Positions 3,896 through 56,149 of a DNA stretch of 64,000 nucleotides are shown here, one piece after another (position 1 is the stretch's first letter; the number at the start of each line of letters is the position of its first letter). The notes under the pieces were generated by a model that saw only the letters and a list, made by a program, of their open reading frames with translations, was not told the origin of the DNA and did no database searches. Made by a program: the position numbers and the translations under genes. The stretch lies in the NCBI GenBank assembly GCA_000146465.1, contig CP001943.1. One strand, written 5' to 3'.

Positions 3896-4020
3896 ACCCC
3901 TATCTCTAGAGAAAAAATTTATACAAAATTCTTTCCAATTTTTACATGTTGAACCATCGGAAAACGAAGAGGCTTCCATATTAGGAAGTGCCCATGTAAA
4001 CAAATTATACAATCCCGCCA

Positions 4021-5067
4021 TTACAGAATAAAGCACAGTCTTGGATACCTTAAGGAATTATCTGCAGCCTTGGAGTTGATGCAGATATGCTCCGAAGACT
4101 CGATGTACTTAGCCCCGTAGATGAATCCATTTTCGAACACGTAGGGCTGATTGGAGTCGTCCATTTCTTCTCCGCTTCCCCGGCACAGTAAGATGCTTAT
4201 CTCGTGTTTGTTGAACGGTACATCCTCTCTTAGTCGGAATGCCTTGCAGCATGCTGGGCAATTGTCATTTTCGGTATCGATGCATCGATATGTTTTGTAT
4301 GCCATCATTCCATATTCTATTCGTTGCATAAGCCTAGACTTAGGTCCTCTTCTAAACAATTTCAGTGCACATCTTAGAAATTGCTCTGCAGTTTTGGTAT
4401 GCCTTGAAAACGGATATTTTCTGAAGTTTGAGTTCGATACAAGAACAGGTAAGTACGACTTTATCTGTTCTGGAACTCTTTTAAACTCTTTATTGATGAA
4501 CTCTAGAGCCTTATCGAATTCTTGTGCATGACACATCTCTATAAACTTTTCAACTTTCAGGTCGTTTTCAAGGGAAATCGCCTCTTCCCATTTTATGCTC
4601 CTAAGCTCCATCCTGTGCTCTCTGCAAAATGCTAGAGCATCTTCAAAAGATCCAGTCTCCACCTGGTTCCTGATCTCATAAATCCGCTTGTAAAAGTCTG
4701 AATCAGAATAACCTCCAATGGAGAATTTCCTAGCCATCAGCTCTGCAGTATCGAAGTATCCCATATGCTCAAAATGCTCCATAATGAACACATTGAGAAC
4801 GTTCACCGGCTCTTTTCTGGCCACTATTGTTTTTGCGTTTTTTTCTATTTCGTCGATGTTCAATTTTATCACCTCCTTAAGCTTTTCAAGCTTTTGCATG
4901 TATTCTTCTCTGCTTATCCTTCCACATTTATACATCTGAAAGAGCCTTTCCATAAGCTTGCATGTTGTTCTGAGAATGTTTGATATTCTCGCCTCCTGGA
5001 TTGTTGAGAGATCCATCAAAACAATTTGCTTTCTTTCAATATATACACATGTTGACATCCCACTCAA
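4021..5067 (-). CDS. GID/CTLH-complex E3 ligase subunit-like protein (Rmd5/MAEA-like; LisH-CTLH-CRA region plus degenerate C-terminal RING)
   Basis: C-terminal CPACCKAF...[10 protein letters not shown] resembles the Gid-type RING of MAEA/Rmd5 (NGYVYGYNSL); helical N-terminal half consistent with LisH/CTLH. Confidence 0.5.
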
Positions 5068-5143: not shown

Positions 5144-6859
5144 TCAGCTAAAATCAACCTTGTGTAGCTTATTTGTAATTGAAAGATAAATGTTTTTGTT
5201 GAAAATCCTTCTTGGCCTTTTATCTACCAGGGCTTCTCCGTTCTTCTTCCAAGAATTACCATCCTTCCTATATCTTTTTAGAACAGAAGCATCCTTTACG
5301 CGACTGAACGTTAAAATAACCTGATCCTCTACAAAAACATCCATGACATTTGAATCACTAATTAAGTTCTCTTCGGCAGCTCCATCTTTCATTTCAAAGC
5401 TAAGTACTCCATCCCTAGGTAATGATACAAATAATGTATCACCAGAAATTCTAAAAGATGTAATTTTTTCCTCTCTTAAAATCCACTCTTCGGATTCTAC
5501 TCTGAATATTCCACATTCATCAAGTAAGAAAATTCCATTTTTTGTCTCTTCAATTTGCCGAATATTTTGATTGATAAGGCTTTTTGTGATTCCAGGACCT
5601 ATTACTTCGATAAGACTTCCATCCAAATATAAGAAAAGCTTTCCCTTGGAAAACACCATGTCTGCAGGTGTAGCCAGTGTTTCAACCGAGTTATACTTCC
5701 CTATCAATAACAACCCATCACTTTCTATCTTATAAACCTTGGCAGTTCTCCTCCCTTTTTCTCTTCTATGTTCTAATCCAATAATGAATCCTGATGAGTA
5801 GAAAAAATCAAATCCCTCGAGGTAAGCTATTCTTTGCATCTCTTCCTTTTCAAGGTCATATATAAAAATATAATCTCTCCTTACTGCAACTATAGAGTTT
5901 TTGGAGGAAAAAAGAAAATCCTCCTTCTGAAATACATAAGGCATCTTTACCTTGGTTTTCTTTATATTATGCTCAAAGATTTCCTTTCCAGGGATTTCTT
6001 CTTCTCTGTTCTCAAAGCCATTAAGAGACTTGCAGTATTCAAAGTTCGGAAGAGAAAATATCTGTTTTTTGGTACTCCCCACCTTCAAATCATATACCAA
6101 AAGGCAAAACACAGTCAAAATGTAAACATTACTCTCGTCTTGGACAAAATCTACAAGGTCTCCTTCAAATGTTGTTAGAAATGTCTTCTCATCTCTCTTA
6201 GTTTCTATTCGAACAAGCTTTCTGCTTGAACACACAACTAGAAGACTTTCAAGAGTAGTTATTATAATTCCGGTAATCGGACGAGCATGGTAATGGTACG
6301 ATAGGCTTGACTTTCCCTTCAGGAAATTCAGAACATTCGCATCGTCTGTATATGCAATCATTCCATTCTTCACTGCAAGATACTTGATATTTACATCCCG
6401 AAGAACTTCTGAACTTCTTCTCTTTACAATATCAAACCTAATTAGGCTTTTATTACTACATATGTAGAAATCGACCCCGTCCCAGAAATAAGTTCCTGCT
6501 TCAAAATCAAACAGCATTTCCTGTTCCTCATTGATTCCTAAGTATCTGTCCATTTCTTGTACAAGATAAAAGAGTTGACCGTGATGCACATAAAAGTCAA
6601 AAGTCTTCTCGCTTGGAACTTCAACTTCATGAGCCGGATCTTCAAATAAATTTTCGTAGATAAATATCTTCTTCCTTGTCAAGAAGTAATATTTCCGATC
6701 AAACTCTCTGGCTACTTTAATCTTAAAGAACTTTCTTCTCCTTAATAATACAAGGTCCTTTTTACAATATTCCTCAATAGAATTCTCTCCTACTTTATAA
6801 ACCACCTCTCCATTGATAAATATCTTTCTGTTATCCCCGTTTAATATCATAAGGGCCAT
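5144..6859 (-). CDS. Hypothetical protein, 571 aa, no recognised domain (possibly beta-rich/propeller-like)
   Basis: Uninterrupted 1.7 kb ORF in AT-rich DNA; start and stop fit neighbouring gene spacing. Confidence 0.5.
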   Translation of the reverse strand: MALMILNGDNRKIFINGEVVYKVGENSIEEYCKKDLVLLRRRKFFKIKVAREFDRKYYFLTRKKIFIYENLFEDPAHEVEVPSEKTFDFYVHHGQLFYLVQEMDRYLGINEEQEMLFDFEAGTYFWDGVDFYICSNKSLIRFDIVKRRSSEVLRDVNIKYLAVKNGMIAYTDDANVLNFLKGKSSLSYHYHARPITGIIITTLESLLVVCSSRKLVRIETKRDEKTFLTTFEGDLVDFVQDESNVYILTVFCLLVYDLKVGSTKKQIFSLPNFEYCKSLNGFENREEEIPGKEIFEHNIKKTKVKMPYVFQKEDFLFSSKNSIVAVRRDYIFIYDLEKEEMQRIAYLEGFDFFYSSGFIIGLEHRREKGRRTAKVYKIESDGLLLIGKYNSVETLATPADMVFSKGKLFLYLDGSLIEVIGPGITKSLINQNIRQIEETKNGIFLLDECGIFRVESEEWILREEKITSFRISGDTLFVSLPRDGVLSFEMKDGAAEENLISDSNVMDVFVEDQVILTFSRVKDASVLKRYRKDGNSWKKNGEALVDKRPRRIFNKNIYLSITNKLHKVDFS

Positions 6860-6924: not shown

Positions 6925-7794
6925 TTATCTTATCTCATACTTCCTTCCATTCTGCTCAAGATATCTCTGGAAAAAAGGCTGCTCCTTCAGGCTGATCATA
7001 TCTTCTACATACTTCTTGGCTATAACAAACTGAACGCTCATTCTTGCAATTTCTGGAGACTCATAGATTTCGGTTCTTTCCAAGGTCTCATCAATGAGCT
7101 TTACAAATCTAATATCGTTTTCTACTGAGCCCTGGCTTAACACAAGCAGTATTTTGCTGATAGCTTCTTCTTTTATGGCTTCCTCATGCTCGATAAACCT
7201 TTGTTTCAGCAATCCCAGCAAGTTCTTAATTTTCAAATCTTCGTATTTCAGCATTACATCTTCTCTTTCCCTCATAACTTTGCTATGGAACTCAACTCCC
7301 CTTTCAGCTCCCTTCAGGATATTCAATCCAAGTCTATTGATAGAACATCCCACTTTTCTCTCCACATTTTTGGTATGATCACTATATTTACGGGACCGTT
7401 GGAAGCTCAGCAGCTTAGCCGCCATGTCTGTATTGTTATAAAGACAAGAGAGTAATGCAGAGACTCCTTTTTTATAGTGCTCTTCCTCTATGTTCTTGAT
7501 AGGTTTTCCAACTTCGGACTCTAAAATACCCTTTTTCTTTGCATAAACAGCTTCTATATACCCAAAGCTCTGTTCTAATATCCATTCATGGAACTTTCGA
7601 AGTACCTTACATATTTCTAACTCCATAAAGATCCTTTTTTCTTTCTCCTCTACCTGAGAGTCAATATTTCGCTGGTAAAAAATCAAATCCCTATAATCTT
7701 TGAATCTATCTTCCACTTCTTTGCTAAGACTGGCCACTTGCAATGTCTTTTCCGTGTTTTCTAATGCGTTCTCGAGATACACAACAAGATCCAT
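6925..7794 (-). CDS. Hypothetical alpha-helical protein, 289 aa
   Basis: Long ORF; helical, charged composition; no confident motif (PCI-like fold only speculative). Confidence 0.5.
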   Translation of the reverse strand: MDLVVYLENALENTEKTLQVASLSKEVEDRFKDYRDLIFYQRNIDSQVEEKEKRIFMELEICKVLRKFHEWILEQSFGYIEAVYAKKKGILESEVGKPIKNIEEEHYKKGVSALLSCLYNNTDMAAKLLSFQRSRKYSDHTKNVERKVGCSINRLGLNILKGAERGVEFHSKVMREREDVMLKYEDLKIKNLLGLLKQRFIEHEEAIKEEAISKILLVLSQGSVENDIRFVKLIDETLERTEIYESPEIARMSVQFVIAKKYVEDMISLKEQPFFQRYLEQNGRKYEIR

Positions 7795-9552: not shown

Positions 9553-10851
9553 ATGAAGATTCTTCTTCTATCTCCTCTTGTGCTTGCACATGTAATCAAT
9601 TTGGTTATTCTTTATGAAAAGACAGGGCTTAAGGAGGTCAAGGAGATGTACCACTATGTGGTCGAAAGATTGTTGGACAAGTTCAATGAGCATCTGCAAC
9701 GAAGAGGAATAAGAATTAGTCTGATGGACTTTCTGGCATACGACGATTACCTTGTCAAACCTGGGTATCAGGATATATCGATTATGGGTGGAGAGGAGAG
9801 TCTTGATGCAAGAATCGAAGCATTGAACGGAATCCCCACTAATGTTATTCTCGTTGCCTCAGCAAGTCCCGAAGAAGAACGGGAAAAATTTATACCAAAC
9901 TCTCCGTGCACAAGCCGGTTTATTAGCAATATGGTTTCCAACGACATCGTTGACGACGAGTTACTTACCAAAATCATATATGCAGTCCTCGACTGGATGA
10001 GGGGCCTTTTTAAGGTGGAGGTTCCAAGTCCTGTAAAGGAGAGAAGCCCTGAAGTCTTTGACAAATTTGCAAAAGATGTTACTACACCCGAGTTTATAGA
10101 AAACTTGAAGCAATGCACAAAAGAAACAAGAGACAAGTTCGAGAAGTTTATCCGAGCAATGAACTGGGATGAAGAAAAAATGCTTAGCTTGAGAATGATG
10201 TCTGAAAAGACTGACCATTCCCAAAACGAAGGAGTTGAAATATCAAGTCCTTTGAAGTGGGTCCTATCCAAGTCAGAAAAGAAAACCAAAGATACTGAAA
10301 CCGATCACCAATGCTCGGAAGAAAATAAATCAAAGAAAGAACATTCGGAATCATCTTCCGAAGACGAAGATTCCTCCTCCAAGAATGATAAAAAGAAGCC
10401 AACTAAATCCCATAAACCTAAAGAAGTACCTTCTAAAAGGATAAAGAAGATTTTGTCAAGAAAGGAAGAGTCAGATGACTTTACAGACTTAGAAGAGACA
10501 GACAAAAAAGAAAGAGACAAGGAATATGAAAAAAGCCAAGGTAATGGCTCTCTAAGATACCTAGATAAGAATACAAACCTCCACAATATGCGAAGGTTGA
10601 AAGAAGACGAAGAAACACTAATGGAAGAGAAGATCAGGGAGGAACTCCAAAAAATCATCTCTCATGAGCCCCACAATACAAAAAAAAAATTTGAAGACTC
10701 CATCTTTACTGGAATTCCTCCTTATAGTGATGAAGAAGCAAGAAATGGCCCATCCAGAATACTATTTTCAAGTAGAGCTACCCCAGTAAAAGGGACATCA
10801 AGGCTTAATAGAAGCTTATCATACGGAAGAATCCCATACAGAGGCGGCTAA
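9553..10851 (+). CDS. Secreted protein with globular N-terminal half and highly charged low-complexity (S/E/K/D-rich) C-terminal half
   Basis: N-terminal signal peptide MKILLLSPLVLAHVINLVILY; C-terminal half dominated by K/E/S/D; first of four consecutive same-strand signal-peptide genes. Confidence 0.6.
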   Translation: MKILLLSPLVLAHVINLVILYEKTGLKEVKEMYHYVVERLLDKFNEHLQRRGIRISLMDFLAYDDYLVKPGYQDISIMGGEESLDARIEALNGIPTNVILVASASPEEEREKFIPNSPCTSRFISNMVSNDIVDDELLTKIIYAVLDWMRGLFKVEVPSPVKERSPEVFDKFAKDVTTPEFIENLKQCTKETRDKFEKFIRAMNWDEEKMLSLRMMSEKTDHSQNEGVEISSPLKWVLSKSEKKTKDTETDHQCSEENKSKKEHSESSSEDEDSSSKNDKKKPTKSHKPKEVPSKRIKKILSRKEESDDFTDLEETDKKERDKEYEKSQGNGSLRYLDKNTNLHNMRRLKEDEETLMEEKIREELQKIISHEPHNTKKKFEDSIFTGIPPYSDEEARNGPSRILFSSRATPVKGTSRLNRSLSYGRIPYRGG

Positions 10852-24996: not shown

Positions 24997-26505
24997 TCAT
25001 TTTAATTCGTCTAGGCCTTCAATCTCAAGCCAACCAATGTCTCCATCTCCCTCCAGAATTGAGAGATTGATGCTATTTTCCTTATCACCTTCTTCATCTA
25101 CATCATTTGAAGCTTTTCTCCTTGTTCTCTTGAATGGAAAGATAATTCTTGCAATGTTATATGAATTAGAACGTAGAAATAAAACCATATCTTCAAAAAA
25201 GGTAGTAAAAAAGGCACTGTTCCAGCATCGGTGTCTTTCAAATACATCGCGCCACGTCTTCATCAAGACTAGGAATGAAGGCTTATAAAAGTACCTCTTG
25301 TCGACAAAAGAATATATGTTAGAAAGAAGCCTCAATATCTTTGCGGTGTTGCAGTCTTGGAAACATTTTCCCATCCATTCATCTTCTCTTAATCCCCCTA
25401 CCGAACAGTCTGACTGGCTATAGGCGCATTCCTGAAAACATGAGCAATCTACATAACTATACTCGAGTAGACTAAATATTTTTCTTATTTTGTTCTCATT
25501 GAACTGCTTCTTGTCTAGGTTCCAATCAAAGAGATAATAGTAATTATATAGTACTAATCCACATTCCATAACTATATTGGTGTCCTTACATTCCAATAGT
25601 TTTGCTACATGAATCATTAGATCCGAGTCTTCTATCTTATCTAAATAAAGTATCGCCTTCGAGGATTTTCCAAGACTCTCCAGCATTTTCCTATACAGCC
25701 TGATGGCTAAGTAACTCCCACTATTCACTAGTTCCTTAAGTCCAGATGACCCGCACAAGAAGAGATAATCCCATTCGCAATAGTTCATGAGATGTAAATT
25801 CTTATCCAATCCCAAATCCAATAGGTCAAAGAACGTAGTATTGTAAATATCATCAAATATGTTCTTAAGAACTGGCTGCCCTACTTTGTGAAGGGAAGAA
25901 GGCTTCCTAAAGGTAAAATGCATTTTATCCTTGAAGACCACTTCAGAATCAAAATGCCTTCTTTTTATTTCGTGCATAATGCCTTCACCTCTGTCCTCTT
26001 CATACTTCCCTCTTGCTTCGTATACCTTGTATTCAAATATCAAGGAATACAATCTTGCGGTCTCCGAAGAGACAAGAGAGTTCAGAAGAATAAAGAATCC
26101 GCAGTCATATAGCACACCTGGAAACAGAGAACTCTTCTTGATGGCCTCGCAACAGAAGGAAATAACATACTGGGGACTCTCCATAGACTCATACAGAATC
26201 TCCGACAACAAAAATCCACCCTTTCTTGTCATAAACAGCACTGGAAGCCTGGAGTTAGGGAGCTGCAAGATCTTTATTGCTAGTCCAAATGCTTTCTGTC
26301 TATCTTTGGAATTTCTTATAAGATAAGGAAAATTCCTTTCAATGAATTTCCAGTCATCTAGAAGACTCAAGAGAGATGGATCCTCATCAGTAAGTGATAT
26401 TATCTTCTCGAGGGATTCTTCATGCTCTCCCGACAAACCTCCTTCGTTCACCAAGGACTCATTAAGAATAAAGAGCACTCCCCTTGCTTCGTCTTCTTGC
26501 ATCAA
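24997..26505 (-). CDS. Hypothetical protein, 502 aa (possible CBF/NOC-family helical repeat protein; weak)
   Basis: Long ORF; helical repeats; no decisive motif. Confidence 0.45.
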   Translation of the reverse strand: MMQEDEARGVLFILNESLVNEGGLSGEHEESLEKIISLTDEDPSLLSLLDDWKFIERNFPYLIRNSKDRQKAFGLAIKILQLPNSRLPVLFMTRKGGFLLSEILYESMESPQYVISFCCEAIKKSSLFPGVLYDCGFFILLNSLVSSETARLYSLIFEYKVYEARGKYEEDRGEGIMHEIKRRHFDSEVVFKDKMHFTFRKPSSLHKVGQPVLKNIFDDIYNTTFFDLLDLGLDKNLHLMNYCEWDYLFLCGSSGLKELVNSGSYLAIRLYRKMLESLGKSSKAILYLDKIEDSDLMIHVAKLLECKDTNIVMECGLVLYNYYYLFDWNLDKKQFNENKIRKIFSLLEYSYVDCSCFQECAYSQSDCSVGGLREDEWMGKCFQDCNTAKILRLLSNIYSFVDKRYFYKPSFLVLMKTWRDVFERHRCWNSAFFTTFFEDMVLFLRSNSYNIARIIFPFKRTRRKASNDVDEEGDKENSINLSILEGDGDIGWLEIEGLDELK

Positions 26506-32420: not shown

Positions 32421-33443
32421 ATGGTACTTCTAGCAAAAAAGAAGACCTATATCTGTCTACATGTGCTAAATACTATTATACTCACAGCCATTTCGGCAAT
32501 CCATGAGAAAAGGTCCTCTCTTAGGAACTTACAAGACAAAATAGAAGTAAGAAAGTCAATAATCGACCAGAAGGTGTATACAAAACTTTTTACTAAAATT
32601 GCAGAAGGAAACTACATAGTCGTCCAAAGAGATAGCAAGCTTTTAAAATATCTTGGGAACACTAATCCTCTTTCAGATCTCTATTTAATCGGGAAATATG
32701 GGATTCCAAAACATATTTCTTTGGAGGACATTCCTTATCTTGAAACTGAAGCTCGATACTTCTTTATAGAAATCAAAGATATTCCAATCCACAGGATATT
32801 TGTGAAGCAGAACCTTCATTCTTTTATGTATATAAAGGGTTTTAATCTTGGTCCAGACAAAGATGAAATCGACCAAATGGTGAAGATTTCCCAGGAATGC
32901 TTGAGGGCTTTTGATCGAATAGGGAATATAGAAATGGCTGCCAAAGACATGATAGTCAAAATTCGTAAGGTAAACCCTTTCGAACTTTTCATCAACCATT
33001 CAGAAGGTTTCACCATAATGAAATCAATATTCAACCACAGGAACGAGTTTCTGGAAGACTTGAAAGTTCACTTTGTAAAATTCATGAGCTCGATCTTTTT
33101 TGGAATGAAAACATCCTCCTTCTGCGATGCCTATGTAAAGAGCATTATCAGCTATTTGGAAAGGGAAAATATCCTTGCTATAGCTCCGTCAATCAAGGAA
33201 TATCCAGAATTAATCCACCGCTTATTTCCATACAAAATCATCTCAACCTCACCTAATATTCTTCACGAGGAATTGATTGTGGGAGGAATCTCCTTGGATG
33301 GCATTTTGCAAGATAAGTATCTAAGGGAGCTTTTTAATCTTGGGAAGATCAAGGAAATAACAAGAGGAGGAAGCAGGTTTATATTTACAGGCCATATATC
33401 CATTGACAACCAAAAAGGAAAATACAACGTTAGTTTCGTATAG
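32421..33443 (+). CDS. Hypothetical protein, 340 aa
   Basis: Long ORF, no motif recognised. Confidence 0.45.
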   Translation: MVLLAKKKTYICLHVLNTIILTAISAIHEKRSSLRNLQDKIEVRKSIIDQKVYTKLFTKIAEGNYIVVQRDSKLLKYLGNTNPLSDLYLIGKYGIPKHISLEDIPYLETEARYFFIEIKDIPIHRIFVKQNLHSFMYIKGFNLGPDKDEIDQMVKISQECLRAFDRIGNIEMAAKDMIVKIRKVNPFELFINHSEGFTIMKSIFNHRNEFLEDLKVHFVKFMSSIFFGMKTSSFCDAYVKSIISYLERENILAIAPSIKEYPELIHRLFPYKIISTSPNILHEELIVGGISLDGILQDKYLRELFNLGKIKEITRGGSRFIFTGHISIDNQKGKYNVSFV

Positions 33444-40702: not shown

Positions 40703-42565
40703 ATGGAAAAGAAAGCCCTGAAAATGGATCAGAACAATAACATGAACAAGTTCTTCAACTCGTCGTTCTTTGCACAGACACCCCAGAAGGATAATAAGCC
40801 GGGGCAGTTTTCCGGGATACAGCAGCCTTCTATTTTTGGGCAAACACAGTCTGGGTTTAGCGGAGCCCAGAATCCTTTTCTCCAGGGATCCGGAGGGATG
40901 AAGAGTAACACGTTTGGGACTTCAACGCCGTTTGGAGGTACCTCTACATTTGGAGGAGCGACTTCTAACTCTGGGGGATTTGGACAGCCTTTTTCGACCC
41001 AACAGCCTTCAACTTCATTGACAAGATTTGGGACTGGAGGAACACTTGGAACAGGAAATAATATATTTGGAGGAACAGCTAACACAATAGGAACGAATCC
41101 AACGCAGTTTGGGGGATCGGGAAATACTTCTACCTTTGGGACTCAGCAGCAAGTCAATAATAACACCTTTGGGTCTGGAGTTCCAAATTCATTGCAGCCT
41201 TTTTCGATGGGGGCCTCAACAGCAACACAACCCAGCATATGGGGACAACAAACAACCTCTTACAATCCCTTTGGTAGTAGCCAAAACTCCTCTTTTTCTA
41301 ACGACAGAAGTAACGCCTTGGGAAAGGGATTTCCTGGGCTTGGTGGAGGGAATTCTGGAACCCGAGATCATCCCTACATGCAAAGGAAGATTAGGGAAGA
41401 TAATGGAGGAGAAGTTACCTTGATGCACATCAACGGTAACGAGGGTTACACACAAAAGTCTGTCGATGAACTTAGGGCAGAAGATTATATACTTGGAAGA
41501 AAGCCACCTACTGGAAGCAGCTTAGCAGAACCCAAGAGCATTCCAGGATTTGGATCGTCTTTTGGAGGTCCGGTGCCTTCCTCTATAGACAGTAAGCCTC
41601 AGAGTAGCAATATTTTTGGAGCTACTCCTTCAAACAATTCATTCCAGCCATTTATTTCAACAGGAAACTCAAAAGTCTTACAAGGGCCTACTAATCCAGG
41701 TTTTGGAAATACGGTTGCACAACAGCCATTTGCATCCCAAGCAATTTCTCAAAGTACGCCGAGCCAGCCCTTTGGAACAGCAGCACAAGCTCTTCCCTCA
41801 ACAAACTCAAATCCATTTCTTCAGACACCACAGCAACCTCAGTCATTGTTCGGATCTGCCGGAACATCCCCGCAAACGCCAGCTTCGGGTGGTCTCTCAT
41901 TTATGCAGCCACCCACGGCACCTGTGCAGCAGCCCTTTGGAGGTGGAATGGCCTCTCTTGGGACCTGTGGGCAACAGAATACACAGCAGACAAAAATAGA
42001 TCCATCTGATCCCTTTCTCTTGAAAGATATCAAGTTTGAGAAGACCGAGAAAGAACATCTTCCATTGAGCAAGGTGCTTCCAAAGCCTATGTTTAAGGAG
42101 GACTTAAAGCCACAGAAGATATCTCTGAAATTCCGCCCTCCAAAGCCTCCTGCAAAAGAGAAGATATATACTATTCCTCCGATAGAAGATATCAAGCACA
42201 TGAAGGAAGTTCACAATTTGATTATAGGATTTGAAGACAAGGGAAGGATAGAGTATCTTGACACAGTGAACGGATCCGATGTCACCATGGCGAATATCCA
42301 GTCCAAGATTTACTTCTCCAAGGAATCTGTTGTGGTCAACGATCCTGTTGGAGTGGGCCTTAATAGGAGAGCCCGTGTATATGTAGAAGGAGTGTTTCCA
42401 TATAGTAGAAGCTTAGGAGACTATGTTAGAGGTGAGCAGAAACAGTTTCCGCTAAAAGGAATCCAGGAAAGGTTTCTGTATGGTTTGAAGAATGACACGG
42501 TTAAGAAATTTGTTGGATATGAGTATGAAAGGGGGACATACGTCTACGATGTTAACCATTTCTGA
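40703..42565 (+). CDS. FG-repeat nucleoporin of the Nup98/Nup116/Nup145N type with C-terminal autoproteolytic-type domain ending in ...HF
   Basis: About 450 aa of GFG/FG/GGF repeats, then VGLNRRARVYVEGVFPYSRSLGDY...YEYERGTYVYDVNHF-stop, matching the Nup98 C-terminal domain up to the HF/S cleavage site. Confidence 0.85.
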   Translation: MEKKALKMDQNNNMNKFFNSSFFAQTPQKDNKPGQFSGIQQPSIFGQTQSGFSGAQNPFLQGSGGMKSNTFGTSTPFGGTSTFGGATSNSGGFGQPFSTQQPSTSLTRFGTGGTLGTGNNIFGGTANTIGTNPTQFGGSGNTSTFGTQQQVNNNTFGSGVPNSLQPFSMGASTATQPSIWGQQTTSYNPFGSSQNSSFSNDRSNALGKGFPGLGGGNSGTRDHPYMQRKIREDNGGEVTLMHINGNEGYTQKSVDELRAEDYILGRKPPTGSSLAEPKSIPGFGSSFGGPVPSSIDSKPQSSNIFGATPSNNSFQPFISTGNSKVLQGPTNPGFGNTVAQQPFASQAISQSTPSQPFGTAAQALPSTNSNPFLQTPQQPQSLFGSAGTSPQTPASGGLSFMQPPTAPVQQPFGGGMASLGTCGQQNTQQTKIDPSDPFLLKDIKFEKTEKEHLPLSKVLPKPMFKEDLKPQKISLKFRPPKPPAKEKIYTIPPIEDIKHMKEVHNLIIGFEDKGRIEYLDTVNGSDVTMANIQSKIYFSKESVVVNDPVGVGLNRRARVYVEGVFPYSRSLGDYVRGEQKQFPLKGIQERFLYGLKNDTVKKFVGYEYERGTYVYDVNHF

Positions 42566-42653
42566 GAAATGGAATAACTTCTGAATTAAAGAACTAGTGG
42601 ATGTTTTTTGGTTATCGGACTGAAATCCGTATTTTGATATATCCCTACCTTAA

Positions 42654-44021
42654 ATGCAAGTAAGCTACATAGAAAAGGAGACTATCGATGAACTCCGGAT
42701 AAGCACAAGTATTGGAGATAAGATATTTTTCATCCGGGGAATGGAGTTGGTAAGCAAAAGCATCTATGCATATGACTCGGAGAAGATACACAAAACATTT
42801 GAAGACAGGGTGGACTATATTTGCTACTTTAACGAGATGATATTGGCTCTGTGTGGGAATATTCTATACAAACACAGAGTACTGGGAGAAGAGGTGATTT
42901 TGTGCGGTACTTGCCAACTGCTTGAGCCGCCCATCAAGATATGTGTGAGTGGAGGTCCGGAGGAAAAGGAGGGCTATGCAGTGTGTTTTCTGTATAGAAA
43001 CAAAAGAATTGAAGTTTTTAGCGATGATATCGAAAGGGTTGTTGTGCGCTGCAAAGGGGATGTCGCAAAGGAAGATGAAATAATAGACTTTGCCATTGAA
43101 GACGGGGTATCATGGTTTCTGTCGCAGTCAGGGAGGATTTATCGCACACACTCCTTTGTGATATCAAGAGTGGTTCTTCTGAATAGGCCTGTTCGAATGA
43201 TCCCAGAACCTTCCTACTTCGATGGCACCATTAATAAAATCCTGGCTAAGAGGGGAAGGCTGTATGTGTGTTATGAAGAGGGTTTTGAAGTGTACGACAT
43301 TGGAAAAGATGTTTTGGTGCTGAACTATACATATAAGACTCGTGACTTTGAACTTTATGCTTGGGAGAATGTCTATTGCTTAGAGTCAAATCTATTGATT
43401 GTCGATGAGATGCCGCGGGTGATTGCAAGTGTTCGTGTTCACAAGATGTTTGGAGACATTGGGATTTCAAGAGACAGAATCCTTTTTATTAAAAGGGTGG
43501 AGGAATGCAAAAGAGCTGATGTGAAGCTGCTGAAGGAAGAAGATGCAGATAAAAGAACAAAGGAGATGTTTAGAATAGTAGAAAACGACATCAAGATCCC
43601 CGAGATTGAACTTTCGGAAAATGGAAGGGAAGTTTCTGAAAAAGGTTTTCTCATTGTACAGAAGATGATTAATGAGTTTGAGAGCAAGATCCTAGATGTA
43701 TACAGAAGAATTTACTTTGAGCTTGTGACGCTTAATGAGAGCTTTGGAGAGAAGATAACAGGGCTGAATGCCGAGAATGATTTAATACTCAGGAAGGTAG
43801 AGGTTCTTGACAGAAGAAAGAATGATCTTGTGGAGCGTCTTCAAAAGCTCAGCGAGAAAATGGAGGATGTTGTATCCAGGATCCAAATAGATGGAAGCAA
43901 GACGAGGCGTTTGGCCAAGATGGTTGACAAGGCAATTGATGAAATTTCTTACAAGAAATATGAAAAGTATTCGAGAATCCTTAAGTTACAAAGGGAGGTG
44001 TTGAACAGGAAGATGGTTTAA
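42654..44021 (+). CDS. Hypothetical beta-rich N-terminal plus coiled-coil C-terminal protein (Nup82/Nup88-like architecture; speculative)
   Basis: N-terminal 300 aa beta-strand-like, C-terminal 150 aa heptad charged; 88 bp downstream of the FG nucleoporin on the same strand. Confidence 0.45.
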   Translation: MQVSYIEKETIDELRISTSIGDKIFFIRGMELVSKSIYAYDSEKIHKTFEDRVDYICYFNEMILALCGNILYKHRVLGEEVILCGTCQLLEPPIKICVSGGPEEKEGYAVCFLYRNKRIEVFSDDIERVVVRCKGDVAKEDEIIDFAIEDGVSWFLSQSGRIYRTHSFVISRVVLLNRPVRMIPEPSYFDGTINKILAKRGRLYVCYEEGFEVYDIGKDVLVLNYTYKTRDFELYAWENVYCLESNLLIVDEMPRVIASVRVHKMFGDIGISRDRILFIKRVEECKRADVKLLKEEDADKRTKEMFRIVENDIKIPEIELSENGREVSEKGFLIVQKMINEFESKILDVYRRIYFELVTLNESFGEKITGLNAENDLILRKVEVLDRRKNDLVERLQKLSEKMEDVVSRIQIDGSKTRRLAKMVDKAIDEISYKKYEKYSRILKLQREVLNRKMV

Positions 44022-52688: not shown

Positions 52689-54344
52689 CTAGAGCCCATC
52701 GCGGATTCCCCGGAAGAAGGAGCATATTCTTTTCAAGTAGTGTTTAAGATTCTGAGGAAGTCTGTTGTCGATTGGAAAAACTCTCTCTTTGTACCGGACC
52801 ATAAGATCTTCACATAGAACCTCAAATCTTTCTCCATCGTTCATCAAAAACAGGAAACTCAGTCCATTTCTTATGCACCATCCTGTGTTTTCGATGTAAT
52901 CATAGAGTGTTCTGTTTCTGATGCTCATCTCACTCACTTGAGATATGTATGACATCGAAAATTGCTGGTGTGAGGAACAGTCCACCAGTACAGGTGATTC
53001 CCTCAAAAACCAACATACCTCCCTGTCTATTGCCTCACATCTGGCTTTCATCCCCATAATGGTTTCGTATAAGAAGTCTGGAATCTTTTCCGAATACTTC
53101 TTTTCCCCAGCCAAATAAATCACTTCATACCCTTTGCCTCGAGTTTTCAAAGTAAACTCTCTCGTAACATACACAAACCCTCCGGAAAACATGTAATAGA
53201 ACTTGTTTCCACCATTGTCGATTATTATCTTGGGAATTCTTTCCCTCATCATTTTCACATGTCCTGTGAGGAGACTTAAGGCCTTCAAACCTCCATTTGT
53301 GACAAATACAGGCTCGGTTTCTTCGTTCCCAATAAACACAGAGTATATAAACTCCTCCCCACATAAACACTTTTCCTCCCCATGTCTTCTTCCACTTCCA
53401 TGCCTTTCTTTTTTTCTAGCCACTATCCGGGCATCTCCTAGTTCAACCAGATCTCTGGTCTTCTTCATAACTCCATATCTTGTATTCTTCTCAAAGTTGG
53501 GGAGATCTCTGAAATCTTCGCATCTAGGTATAAACCTACTAAAGCTTTCATGCATAAGCGCCTCGCTTGCACTAATCCTCTTGTTGGCATCCTTCTCAAG
53601 CAACTTTCCAAGAAGATCTTTAAGTTCCTTAGAACACTCCAAAGAACTCAAGGATTCATAAAACTTTTTCTTCGTAAGAAGTACATAAAACACTATTCCC
53701 GCAGACCATATATCAACCCCCTGGGAGTATTTCCTTCCCTCAATCACTTCAGGTGCAAGGTAGTCCATTGTCCCACAGAATTCATTGCTGTTTTCCTCCG
53801 CATAGCAGGAGAGCCCAAAGTCACAAATTTTCACTGTATTTCCCTTTAGAAGTATATTTCCCAGCTTCAAGTCTCTGTGGATAACTCCCATGGAATGTAT
53901 GTGTCTCAATCCGCACAGTATCATCCTCAATATCTTCAAGGCTACATCTTCATCAACCTCATACTCATTGAGAAACGAGACAAGATTCAGATCGCACAGC
54001 TCTTCAACTATATACACATGGTTTGCAGATTCAAACTTGTCAACAACCTTAACAATATTTTCGTGGTGGAATGAGCTTAGCATTTTCATTTCTCTGTACA
54101 CCATTCCTCCCGACCTTCCTCGGCGGGATGCCACCTTCACAGCTACCTCCTCCCCAATTGCAGATACCCCGCCATATACTGTGCTTGATGCCCCTTCTCC
54201 AATCACTCGGTGAAGCTTGTACTTCTTCATCCCCTTCAGTCCCTCATTCCAAATAAAAAATCTGCTTTCCGATACTCTCGACATCAAATACAGAATAAAA
54301 TCATTTATTACACTCAGCCCAAATTCTATACAGAAAATAATCAT
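52689..54344 (-). CDS. Polo-like kinase (kinase domain plus C-terminal polo-box-like region)
   Basis: HRDLKLGNILLKGNTVKICDFGLS...FCGTMDYLAPEVI matches PLK (HRDLKLGNLFL...GDFGLA...CGTPNYIAPEVL); C-terminal 250 aa with two polo-box-like beta segments. First ATG overlaps the upstream stop (ATGA); true start may be Met at 54284 or 54230. Confidence 0.7.
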   Translation of the reverse strand: MIIFCIEFGLSVINDFILYLMSRVSESRFFIWNEGLKGMKKYKLHRVIGEGASSTVYGGVSAIGEEVAVKVASRRGRSGGMVYREMKMLSSFHHENIVKVVDKFESANHVYIVEELCDLNLVSFLNEYEVDEDVALKILRMILCGLRHIHSMGVIHRDLKLGNILLKGNTVKICDFGLSCYAEENSNEFCGTMDYLAPEVIEGRKYSQGVDIWSAGIVFYVLLTKKKFYESLSSLECSKELKDLLGKLLEKDANKRISASEALMHESFSRFIPRCEDFRDLPNFEKNTRYGVMKKTRDLVELGDARIVARKKERHGSGRRHGEEKCLCGEEFIYSVFIGNEETEPVFVTNGGLKALSLLTGHVKMMRERIPKIIIDNGGNKFYYMFSGGFVYVTREFTLKTRGKGYEVIYLAGEKKYSEKIPDFLYETIMGMKARCEAIDREVCWFLRESPVLVDCSSHQQFSMSYISQVSEMSIRNRTLYDYIENTGWCIRNGLSFLFLMNDGERFEVLCEDLMVRYKERVFPIDNRLPQNLKHYLKRICSFFRGIRDGL

Positions 54345-56149
54345 CGGAAATGCTTTTCGTAATCAACTAATGCTATTCGGGTGTGTCTTCTAAACTTCAC
54401 ATCGAGTTCACAGTCTTGGGCTTTCTTTTTCTCGCTCTCTATCTCTTCCATTCTCTTTTCGGTGTCCAAATCATAAGGCTCTAATGCTTCACAGCCAAAC
54501 TCACCAAATAGCACCTCGGAAACATTTAAGTACCGGCCCTTGTACATTTCCTTAACAAGTTCCTCGTTCAGAATCTTCTTAGCCCCGAAGAGACACAAAA
54601 TCTTGTAGTGGCTATCTTTCGAGACTCCATCTCCAACAAGATCCATTAGAAGATACTGTATGTCTCTGTTTTCCGTTTCACAGAAGAGCACACGGAGTCT
54701 CCTCATTACTCTTTCCTTTACAAAAGGCTTGAGAGCTCGGCCCATAAAGTAATCTTTGGCTAGATACAATATCTTGCAGCAAAATCCCGCAGATTCCCCC
54801 GTTCCCGCTCCCAGGAGGAGCGTCATAAATTTTGGATTGGGAATCCAATCGGAATGAACAACAAAATACCTTTGGATTTCATCAAATATCGTGGTCCTGA
54901 GGTCTTCTGTGTACCCGCTAACTTCTTTGTCCTGAAGAATCTTCTTAAGGAACCTGTAAAATACATCGGATATCGGCTTACATTTCTCAAAATACTTTCT
55001 TACGTAAGGAATAATGAATGGAAGTTTACTATCGTCCCTAGAAAAGAACATCTCAAGGATGCTGAAAAAGCTTACCACTATTTCCTTCTGATTCAAGTGC
55101 AGCACTTCATATTCATTCAAAACACCTAGTGCTTCTCTAACAAGAAACTCGCATTCTCCAACTGCCTTGCTTCTTCCAATCTTCTTGTCTCTATGCACCC
55201 TTTTTCCTCTTTCCAAAATGTTCATATTGGCCTGAAGAATTATCTGTGGATAAAGATCAGGCCCAAGATATTCCGTCAGGGTTCCCACACAGGACTTCCC
55301 CATCCAACTTGCATTCTTCAGTACATAGTAGATGAGGCTATTTCCACTAATGATATTTGCCTTTCCTGCCACAGCCTTAAATATCTCCATTCTCTTGGAA
55401 CTGTTCACTTCTCCATGCTTCATGAGAGATCCTACAAGCCATTTGTACTTCTCATCATAGTCGATCCTCAGAATGTCCTCCATCCCCATAAGTGTGTGTA
55501 TAATCTCCAGGAAGAAATACTCAAACCTAGCATTTGATATCTCCCCTCCTTGTTCATCTCCATGCATCCTAAAGTCCCCTGCCTGCCTCCCCTCATCTTT
55601 CCAGACATTGGTAGTTTCGAGTACATTCTTTTCATTGTATTCCGCTTCATCATCCAAGGACAGACCTTCTGCTATTCCATCGGAATTTTTAACATCCTTC
55701 GCTGCCTGGGTAGCAATAAAAAGAATCTTTCGGATGTACCTCTCACTCTCGTATGCTCGGATCGGTACTGTCTTAAAGAAATACGTAAACACATCCAGAA
55801 ACTCCTGATGGTCCGAATACTCGAAATCCCCTTTTCTTTTCAGCTGCAGGATCTCCCGAATCACCCCAACAAATATCCTTATTATCCGAGACTCATAGCA
55901 GATCGAAACTCCTCTCAACTGATCGATAATTAGTCTTAGGACTTTCGATCCAGTTTTCAGTCTGTGTGTGCTGTATACCTCCTCTCCTGCCCTTATCTTC
56001 AGGTAGTCGAGTGTGCTTGGTATGGTGGATGTCCTCGACTTCAAGTATGTTATGAGTTTAGACAATTTCTCCTCACTTCCACTCCTCCCCTTGTATACAT
56101 CGTCAACCATCTGAAAGTGTTTTTCGTAGCCAAACAGTGCTCTTAACAT
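54341..56149 (-). CDS. Hypothetical helical-repeat protein, 602 aa
   Basis: Uninterrupted 1.8 kb ORF; N- and C-termini both carry a (F/V)(G/D)YEKHF(Q/R) motif; no known domain recognised. Confidence 0.5.
   Translation of the reverse strand: MLRALFGYEKHFQMVDDVYKGRSGSEEKLSKLITYLKSRTSTIPSTLDYLKIRAGEEVYSTHRLKTGSKVLRLIIDQLRGVSICYESRIIRIFVGVIREILQLKRKGDFEYSDHQEFLDVFTYFFKTVPIRAYESERYIRKILFIATQAAKDVKNSDGIAEGLSLDDEAEYNEKNVLETTNVWKDEGRQAGDFRMHGDEQGGEISNARFEYFFLEIIHTLMGMEDILRIDYDEKYKWLVGSLMKHGEVNSSKRMEIFKAVAGKANIISGNSLIYYVLKNASWMGKSCVGTLTEYLGPDLYPQIILQANMNILERGKRVHRDKKIGRSKAVGECEFLVREALGVLNEYEVLHLNQKEIVVSFFSILEMFFSRDDSKLPFIIPYVRKYFEKCKPISDVFYRFLKKILQDKEVSGYTEDLRTTIFDEIQRYFVVHSDWIPNPKFMTLLLGAGTGESAGFCCKILYLAKDYFMGRALKPFVKERVMRRLRVLFCETENRDIQYLLMDLVGDGVSKDSHYKILCLFGAKKILNEELVKEMYKGRYLNVSEVLFGEFGCEALEPYDLDTEKRMEEIESEKKKAQDCELDVKFRRHTRIALVDYEKHFR

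Follow-up and report, generated by a model that had tools for sequence, protein, structure and literature searches.

Does the gene directly downstream of an FG nucleoporin gene in the microsporidian Encephalitozoon intestinalis encode a second nucleoporin, and do the two products interact? The question was raised by a stretch of 64,000 nucleotides (hereafter the window), which an exact-sequence look-up assigned to chromosome II of E. intestinalis ATCC 50506. An earlier note, made from the letters of the window, had described on the + strand a Nup98/Nup116-type protein with phenylalanine-glycine (FG) repeats (40703..42565) and, next to it, a candidate Nup82/Nup88 (42654..44021, locus tag Eint_020400). 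Two surveys, one of them Neumann et al. 2010, found no Nup82/88 in microsporidia while Nup62 and Nup98 were present, and the Nup82/88 slot is therefore empty in this group. Our analysis of the locus gave a firm answer for the first gene and a tentative one for the second. Judged from its sequence, the first gene certainly encodes an FG nucleoporin of the Nup98/Nup145N/Nup116 family without a Nup96/Nup145C half. Eint_020400 is plausibly, though this is unproven, a divergent and shrunken nucleoporin of the Nup82/Nup88 type, and we put the chance of this at a little under even.

The FG nucleoporin gene

The C-terminal domain of the first product (42167..42562, + strand; residues 489-620) has the fold of the Nup98-type S59 'autoproteolytic' domain and ends in His-Phe. 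It matched the Pfam family PF04096 (Nup98-96 autopeptidase S59) with 47 bits (cutoff 28.4, E 3.7e-12). Among PDB sequences it matched the C-terminal domains of solved Nup116 structures (E 8e-8) and, at E about 8e-6, autoproteolytic domains of Nup98; the Nup116/Nup98 matches overall extended to 4e-5. The Nup98 alignments reached the final residue of the query as well as that of the cleaved chain; those with Nup116 of yeast and Candida glabrata ended at the His. Because only the former include the final Phe, the terminus looks nearer to that of mature Nup98/Nup145N than to that of Nup116.

In the Nup98 family the Ser after His-Phe (HF) is the nucleophile of self-cleavage. The first product ends in ...YVYDVNHF, and a TGA codon (42563-42565) stands where this Ser and the Nup96 half would be. 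The cleavage between HF and Ser that releases a Nup96/Nup145C half thus has no counterpart here. No Nup96-like continuation was found 3' of HF in any frame, no Nup96 domain was detected among the 30 window open reading frames (ORFs) scanned against Pfam, and two published surveys are likewise without Nup96. The ending ...DVNHF-stop was present in all seven orthologs compared (E. intestinalis, E. cuniculi, Ordospora colligata, and four relatives from read-archive assemblies). A search for distant orthologs of the FG protein gave three close fragments, and the conservation of the stop thus applies to the Encephalitozoon/Ordospora clade. Since the Ser is not encoded, the protein should neither be able to self-cleave nor need to do so. 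The predicted product is a stand-alone, 'born-cleaved' member of the family with the same C-terminus as mature Nup98, and the 'autopeptidase' in its database name would denote a fold and not an activity.

Upstream of this domain are two blocks of low charge, whose spacers abound in N, Q, S, T, and G and which together hold 18 FG dipeptides. Block 1 (40823..41287, + strand; residues 41-195) contains 11 of them, between uncharged spacers, and block 2 (41528..41962, + strand; residues 276-420) contains the other 7. All 18 are plain xxFG; neither GLFG nor FxFG repeats occur in the product, and no GLFG repeat was found in four of its orthologs. The FG-repeat region with low-charge spacers that marks the Nup98/Nup145N/Nup116 family is thus present, and the classical GLFG subtype is absent. 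A charged, K/P-rich linker (41963..42166, + strand; residues 421-488), which may carry scaffold-binding motifs, joins the second block to the S59 domain. Identity to the Ordospora ortholog differed strongly between segments: 92% in the S59 domain, 72% in residues 222-275, 59% in the linker, and 36-50% in the FG blocks, with block 2 evolving fastest (36%).

The conserved residues 222-275 (41366..41527, + strand) form a GLEBS-like island between the two FG blocks, with the core ...KSVDELRAEDYILGRKPP. This core sequence, KSVDELRAEDYILGRKPP, aligns with the C-terminal end of the human Nup98 GLEBS motif. The pattern KSV[DE]ELR.EDY.LGRK was present in the island core of all five species examined. 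The Pfam GLEBS model scored the protein at 15.3 bits, below its cutoff of 27, and GLEBS-peptide structures made up 3 of the 8 PDB matches to the island, but at E 1.4, with chance matches scoring slightly higher. Rae1 is present in E. cuniculi (Neumann et al. 2010). On sequence grounds, the island likely contains a binding site for Rae1/Gle2.

Read from its first ATG, the ORF (40703..42565) encodes 620 residues, and our residue numbers follow this frame. The true start is probably 40724 and not 40703, because the GenBank record (ADM11040.2, 'nucleoporin autopeptidase', 613 aa) begins at the second Met, which lies there, and the Ordospora ortholog aligns from the same residue. The sole record of a 620-residue version was a gene predicted automatically in a read-archive assembly. 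The identity of the gene is not new, given its GenBank name and the listing in 2010 of Nup96-98, together with Rae1, among the seven nucleoporins detected in E. cuniculi (Neumann et al. 2010).

The order of elements (FG repeats, GLEBS-like motif, FG repeats, linker, and C-terminal S59-fold domain) is that of human Nup98 and yeast Nup145N, the mature forms of which also have their C-terminus at HF. Unlike their precursors, the first product has a stop after HF, no Ser nucleophile, and no Nup96/Nup145C half; unlike these proteins in general, it has no GLFG and is much shorter (613-620 aa). With yeast Nup116/Nup100 it shares a stand-alone gene encoding FG repeats and an S59-fold domain, and with Nup116 also a GLEBS motif, which here is putative. 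Nup116 C-terminal domains are its best PDB sequence matches, and in yeast this domain docks on the Nup82 propeller (structure 3pbp). Unlike Nup116/Nup100, which exist as several paralogs, it appears from published inventories to be the only member of the family in its genus.

What the earlier note had described of this gene was confirmed: a Nup98/Nup116-type FG protein (18 FG dipeptides and the S59 domain), a C-terminal domain that aligns with Nup98 autoproteolytic-domain structures, here to the last residue of both chains, a frame that closes straight after HF without a Nup96/Nup145C half, and a possible GLEBS-like stretch, though with a sub-threshold Pfam score. Its comparison with yeast Nup116/Nup100 was right for the stand-alone layout and gave way to Nup98/Nup145N for the terminus. 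A separate Nup96/Nup145C-like gene, which it had proposed to look for elsewhere in the genome, was absent from the ORFs scanned in the window and from the two surveys.

Family, predicted fold, and identity of Eint_020400

Eint_020400 (42654..44021, + strand; ADM11041.1, 'uncharacterized protein', 455 aa), here a candidate nucleoporin of the cytoplasmic filaments, had no Pfam match and no match among PDB sequences. A word-indexed homology search returned 8 close relatives only, of which two bear the label 'clathrin'. When 1.84 billion representatives were searched exhaustively with a profile, 34 family proteins emerged, nearly all of 410-470 aa, from Encephalitozoon, Ordospora, Astathelohania, Hamiltosporidium, Vavraia, Edhazardia, Tubulinosema, and Dictyocoela. 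According to exact look-ups, the members from the last six genera are all annotated as hypothetical. As far as these searches show, Eint_020400 is a conserved, microsporidia-wide gene.

With an alignment of 8 sequences AlphaFold2 yielded an unusable model (pLDDT, predicted local distance difference test, 49). The 34-sequence alignment rescued it, and the resulting model was confident (mean pLDDT 85.6; predicted template-modelling score, pTM, 0.60). Residues 1-283 (42654..43502, + strand) are beta-rich and form in the model a compact 7-bladed beta-propeller of 29 strands (pLDDT >90), and residues 298-454 are helical and include an 81-residue helix. The linker (43503..43637, + strand; residues 284-328) is FG-free, of low model confidence, and poorly conserved save for a predicted helix at 298-310. 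This helix coincides with the motif LL[KHR]E.D...R...[LM]F (43527-43577, + strand; residues about 292-308), a short stretch that is seen again in remote members of the family (Encephalitozoon, Hamiltosporidium, Vavraia, and others) and might serve for binding. The C-terminal domain (43638..44018, + strand) comprises three helices (329-409, 415-430, and 437-454) with a hydrophobic periodicity of about 3.55 residues. It holds the best-conserved blocks of the family, LD.Y..IY.EL.TLNESF.EK and LK.QR.IL; taken as wholes, the propeller and the three-helix domain are about equally conserved. Conserved patches on the surface of the propeller comprise SWFL..SG.IY (residues about 153-163), PEP (184-186), and P254. 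Pfam detected no WD40 signature in any of the 34 members, while it strongly detected a true WD40 protein in the same window (Sof1-like, 17453-18682), and the propeller is therefore of the non-WD kind. FG repeats between propeller and coiled coil were absent from all 34 members (linker 28-79 aa); one of them has a single FG dipeptide in the linker, and whole proteins contain 0-4. The beta-rich N-terminal half and coiled-coil C-terminal half that had been noticed earlier thus reappeared as a propeller and as helices between residues 329 and 454.

This propeller-and-tail architecture is that of a predicted structure, and we infer the partners, location, and function of the protein. When the model was compared with the PDB by Foldseek, more than 1000 propellers were returned, most of them aligned over about 300 columns. 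A few chains aligned over far more columns because the helical tail is also present in them. Chain 9sob_W, from an Arabidopsis nuclear pore model, ranked 7 and had the tied highest query template-modelling score (0.43) over 763 columns including gaps. This chain is very probably NUP88, because full-length NUP88 is the only single-propeller-plus-coiled-coil subunit of about 800 aa in the Arabidopsis model, and because NUP88 is chain W0 in 7R5J, the human nuclear pore model to which the Arabidopsis paper refers as the earlier one. Among the high-ranking fold families, only Nup82/88 is made up solely of one propeller to which a coiled-coil tail is directly joined.

Eint_020400 resembles Nup82/Nup88 in both parts. 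Its single 7-bladed, non-WD40 propeller is like the solved Nup82/Nup88 N-terminal domains, and an FG-free tail of about three coiled-coil segments follows directly, as in the C-terminal multi-helix coiled coil of these proteins. The same architectural argument has been made for NUP76 of Trypanosoma brucei, which was called a 'structural orthologue' of Nup82/88 by its propeller and three-helix coiled coil alone and was later supported by localisation to the cytoplasmic side of the pore and by an mRNA-export defect on depletion (PMC11825100). NUP76 is thus backed by experiment, and Eint_020400 by sequence and a model.

Several results weigh against assigning Eint_020400 to Nup82/88. The fold search placed Nup88 and Nup82 high, but its ranking is flat. 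Pfam scans of Eint_020400 and all 34 members at E up to 10 gave no link to Nup82/88, phmmer and profile searches of PDB sequences from the family returned coiled-coil noise and no Nup82/88, and hhalign of the family profile against ScNup82 and HsNUP88 gave probabilities of 1.6% and 3.1%. A hidden Markov model (HMM) of the family propeller only scored ScNup82 at 8.3 bits, above 300 of 300 residue shuffles, but 12 of 200 block-20 and 24 of 200 block-40 shuffles matched this score, and an unrelated beta-rich ORF of the window (5144-6859, - strand) reached 11.7 bits. Because block shuffles and an unrelated ORF attain 8-12 bits, the ScNup82 score is background. The HMM of the C-terminal domain was uninformative (0.5 bits for Nup82 and 6.3 for NUP88, vs. 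3-4 bits for unrelated coiled coils). Eint_020400 and Nup82/Nup88 thus have no detectable sequence similarity. Eint_020400 is also far smaller, at about 60% of the length, the propeller having 283 aa where those proteins have about 450-490, and the tail about 125 aa where they have about 190-230; the long loop insertions of Nup82/Nup88, with their known binding sites, are presumably absent. Finally, the adjacency of the two genes carries no weight on the question of interaction (see below). A literature search for the Eint_020400 locus tags or a microsporidian Nup82 found nothing.

The sequences of ScNup82, HsNUP88, and the N-terminal domains of ScNup159 and HsNup214 used in these comparisons were checked against the PDB set, where they scored 1572, 1709, 880, and 987 bits over their full length. 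Yeast Nup82 is, like Eint_020400, invisible to Pfam: none of the Pfam-A families matched it at E up to 0.1, and this includes PF10168 ('Nup88'), with which human NUP88 scores 1000 bits. Nor do yeast Nup82 and human NUP88 find each other with phmmer. Since an accepted member of the type is as silent as this, the silence of the Eint_020400 family speaks neither for nor against Nup82/88. As a separate point, PF10168 does not cover the yeast ortholog, and domain scans call for caution as evidence that Nup82/88 is absent.

The Nup82/Nup88 architecture claimed in the earlier note was thus sustained for the propeller, the coiled coil, and the high rank of Nup88/Nup82 in the fold search; a sequence link was not found, and the flat ranking counts against it. 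Of the outcomes that the note had named as contradicting its reading of the locus, none occurred: a propeller was predicted, no unrelated family was matched, and the first gene did align with Nup98.

The alternative that survives best, although we consider it unlikely, is that Eint_020400 is a lineage-specific protein from outside the pore (for example a factor of ribosome biogenesis or vesicle traffic, or a spindle or polar-tube scaffold), and that its likeness to Nup82/88 is the generic one of 7-bladed propellers. The lack of a significant sequence link to any nucleoporin and the restriction of the family, by sequence, to microsporidia agree with this. Particular families of this kind fit poorly. 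The BBSome and intraflagellar transport (IFT) proteins are ciliary, and microsporidia have no cilia. UTP proteins are WD40 proteins, a class which Pfam readily detects (Sof1 in the window) and of which it gave no signal in the 34 family members. More generally, a layout limited to a single propeller and the coiled-coil tail joined straight to it singles out Nup82/88 among the best-ranked families, and this is a slot that stands empty in microsporidia.

Less probable again is that Eint_020400 is a reduced Nup159/Nup214, which would have kept the propeller (the dock of Dbp5/DDX19) and the coiled coil and lost the FG and dynein-light-chain regions. Nup159/Nup214 belongs to the same complex as Nup82/88, also carries a C-terminal coiled coil, has a non-WD propeller whose solved N-terminal domains the Eint_020400 propeller resembles, and has likewise not been detected in E. 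cuniculi. The propeller-only HMM gave the N-terminal domain of ScNup159 16.4 bits over about 100 residues that align collinearly in one piece (HMM 10-114 vs. residues 85-186), and hhalign recovered the same alignment. The score exceeded 300 of 300 residue shuffles (maximum 5.6), all block-5, block-10, and block-20 shuffles, and 199 of 200 block-40 shuffles, while five real WD40 propellers scored at most -0.7 bits or were not reported. However, hhalign graded the alignment at a probability of 4% (P = 0.011), the N-terminal domain of human Nup214 scored -2.0 bits, and with 11.7 bits for an unrelated beta-rich ORF, 16 bits are not far above the background of real proteins. The alignment is also seemingly offset by one or two blades, which points to similarity at the level of repeats and not to orthology. 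FG repeats are a defining feature of Nup159/214 and are absent from Nup82/88, and their absence between propeller and coiled coil in all 34 family members tells against a Nup159/214. Between the two nucleoporins, the architecture favours Nup82/88, and the weak sequence signal favours a Nup159-like propeller.

Clathrin, the label of two ortholog records (E. hellem WEL38023.1, 'clathrin'; E. cuniculi UYI28237.1, 'putative clathrin'), is effectively refuted: the clathrin heavy chain, whose terminal domain is indeed a 7-bladed propeller, has about 1,600-1,700 aa and a long alpha-solenoid leg vs. 455 aa and a coiled-coil tail in Eint_020400, no family member matched a clathrin Pfam family at E up to 10, and the best fold matches include no clathrin chain. 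The assemblies that carry the labels were annotated with the aid of AlphaFold models and of structural PDB matches from GESAMT (PMC10158259); a generic resemblance between propellers would account for the labels.

Gene neighbourhood and other reading frames

The two genes are separated by a spacer of 88 bp (42566..42653), from the TGA at 42563-42565 to the ATG at 42654 on the same strand, as the earlier note had stated. The genome is microsporidian in character, with tightly packed and intron-poor genes. The run of + strand genes around the pair consists of unrelated housekeeping genes: Sec1, glutathione peroxidase, TFIIA-gamma, the FG protein, Eint_020400, and, next after it, the proteasome subunit Rpn2. 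This block of six genes, with the Nup98-like gene and the Eint_020400 homolog in fourth and fifth place, is collinear in E. cuniculi, Ordospora, and two further relatives. In Tubulinosema and a relative the Eint_020400 homolog has other neighbours, and no S59-domain gene was found within 7-10 kb of it. Because the whole block is collinear and genes lie tens of bases apart genome-wide, the pairing is ordinary clade-level synteny. We therefore rejected the adjacency as functional evidence: six unrelated genes are collinear throughout Encephalitozoon/Ordospora, and the pairing is absent in Tubulinosema. For the same reasons the earlier suggestion that the adjoining genes encode interacting nucleoporins was not supported.

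Two observations concern the homologs of Eint_020400 at other loci. At the Tubulinosema-like loci, a SAC3/GANP gene (PF03399; L002 426-2075, - strand; L001 2540-4207, - strand) lies a few genes from the homolog. SAC3/GANP, the scaffold of TREX-2, acts in mRNA export at the nuclear pore. This proximity is probably a coincidence, yet it provides a second pore-related neighbour where the Nup98-like one is absent. At a further locus (L006), 26 nucleotides (4001-4026) at the end of the upstream S59-domain gene are shared with the 487-aa call for the homolog P0008. P0008 has an N-terminal extension of 33 aa that was seen in no other family member, and its start has probably been mis-called.

Other ORFs of the window were also noted. 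The one at 5144-6859 (- strand; 571 aa) had no Pfam match at E up to 10, is beta-rich with repeated blade-like patterns, and gave its 11.7 bits against the Eint_020400 propeller HMM in three fragments, the highest score of about 100 background ORFs; its product may be another unannotated non-WD propeller protein. Three + strand ORFs at 9553-10851, 11041-11688, and 12455-12877 (432, 215, and 140 aa) begin with hydrophobic, signal-peptide-like N-termini (MKILLLSPLVLAHV, MKSRLLVFACFVFLVYA, and MKKGIIALCALAVSDA, respectively) and sit where GC and AT skew change sign. The 432-aa ORF, the only one of the three that was scanned, had no Pfam match. The trio could encode secreted proteins or proteins of the spore-wall or polar-tube type. 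Four more ORFs, at 6925-7794 (- strand, 289 aa), 24997-26502 (- strand, 501 aa), 32421-33443 (+ strand, 340 aa), and 54341-56149 (- strand, 602 aa), drew no match from Pfam at E up to 0.001. Such 'dark' genes are typical of microsporidia, and deep alignment and structure prediction might resolve them.

A predicted export platform at the pore

The smallest eukaryotic genomes known are those of microsporidia, for which surveys of sequences list only about seven nucleoporins, without Nup82/88, Nup159/214, or the outer-ring (Y-complex) proteins. If Eint_020400 is of the Nup82/Nup88 type, the locus suggests how part of such a pore might be built. The two FG blocks of the first product would contribute cohesive, uncharged FG repeats to the permeability barrier, its GLEBS-like island would recruit the mRNA-export factor Rae1/Gle2, and its S59-fold domain would serve as the anchor to the pore; the protein would be made directly in the form that others reach by self-cleavage. 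The 7-bladed propeller of Eint_020400 would be the docking platform for this S59 domain, as the Nup82/Nup88 propeller is for Nup116/Nup98 (3pbp and 7mni). Its three C-terminal helices may enter a heterotrimeric coiled coil with Nsp1/Nup62, which is present in E. cuniculi (Neumann et al. 2010), and a third partner. Together with Rae1, the two proteins could form a shrunken platform for mRNA export on the cytoplasmic face of the pore.

A more specific form of this module can be imagined, which we think improbable. The Nup96/Y-complex partner of the S59 domain would have been lost, and the born-cleaved Nup98-like protein would be anchored only through Eint_020400. The latter would be a hybrid of Nup82/88 layout and Nup159-like propeller, anchoring Nup98 and Rae1 and at the same time docking Dbp5.

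The gain from these results is incremental, a homology assignment inside a known framework and unproven, and Eint_020400 would add no more than a strongly diverged new member, mis-annotated or unannotated at present, to a kind already known. In practice, the 'clathrin' labels on its orthologs merit correction, and the 'autopeptidase' of the first gene should be read as naming its fold. Should the Nup82/Nup88-type identity of Eint_020400 be true, the mRNA-export platform of the cytoplasmic face would have outlasted even extreme reduction of the genome, at a size about 40% below that of its yeast counterpart, and the S59 domain and the propeller would provide a concrete, testable pair for the reconstruction of a minimal nuclear pore.

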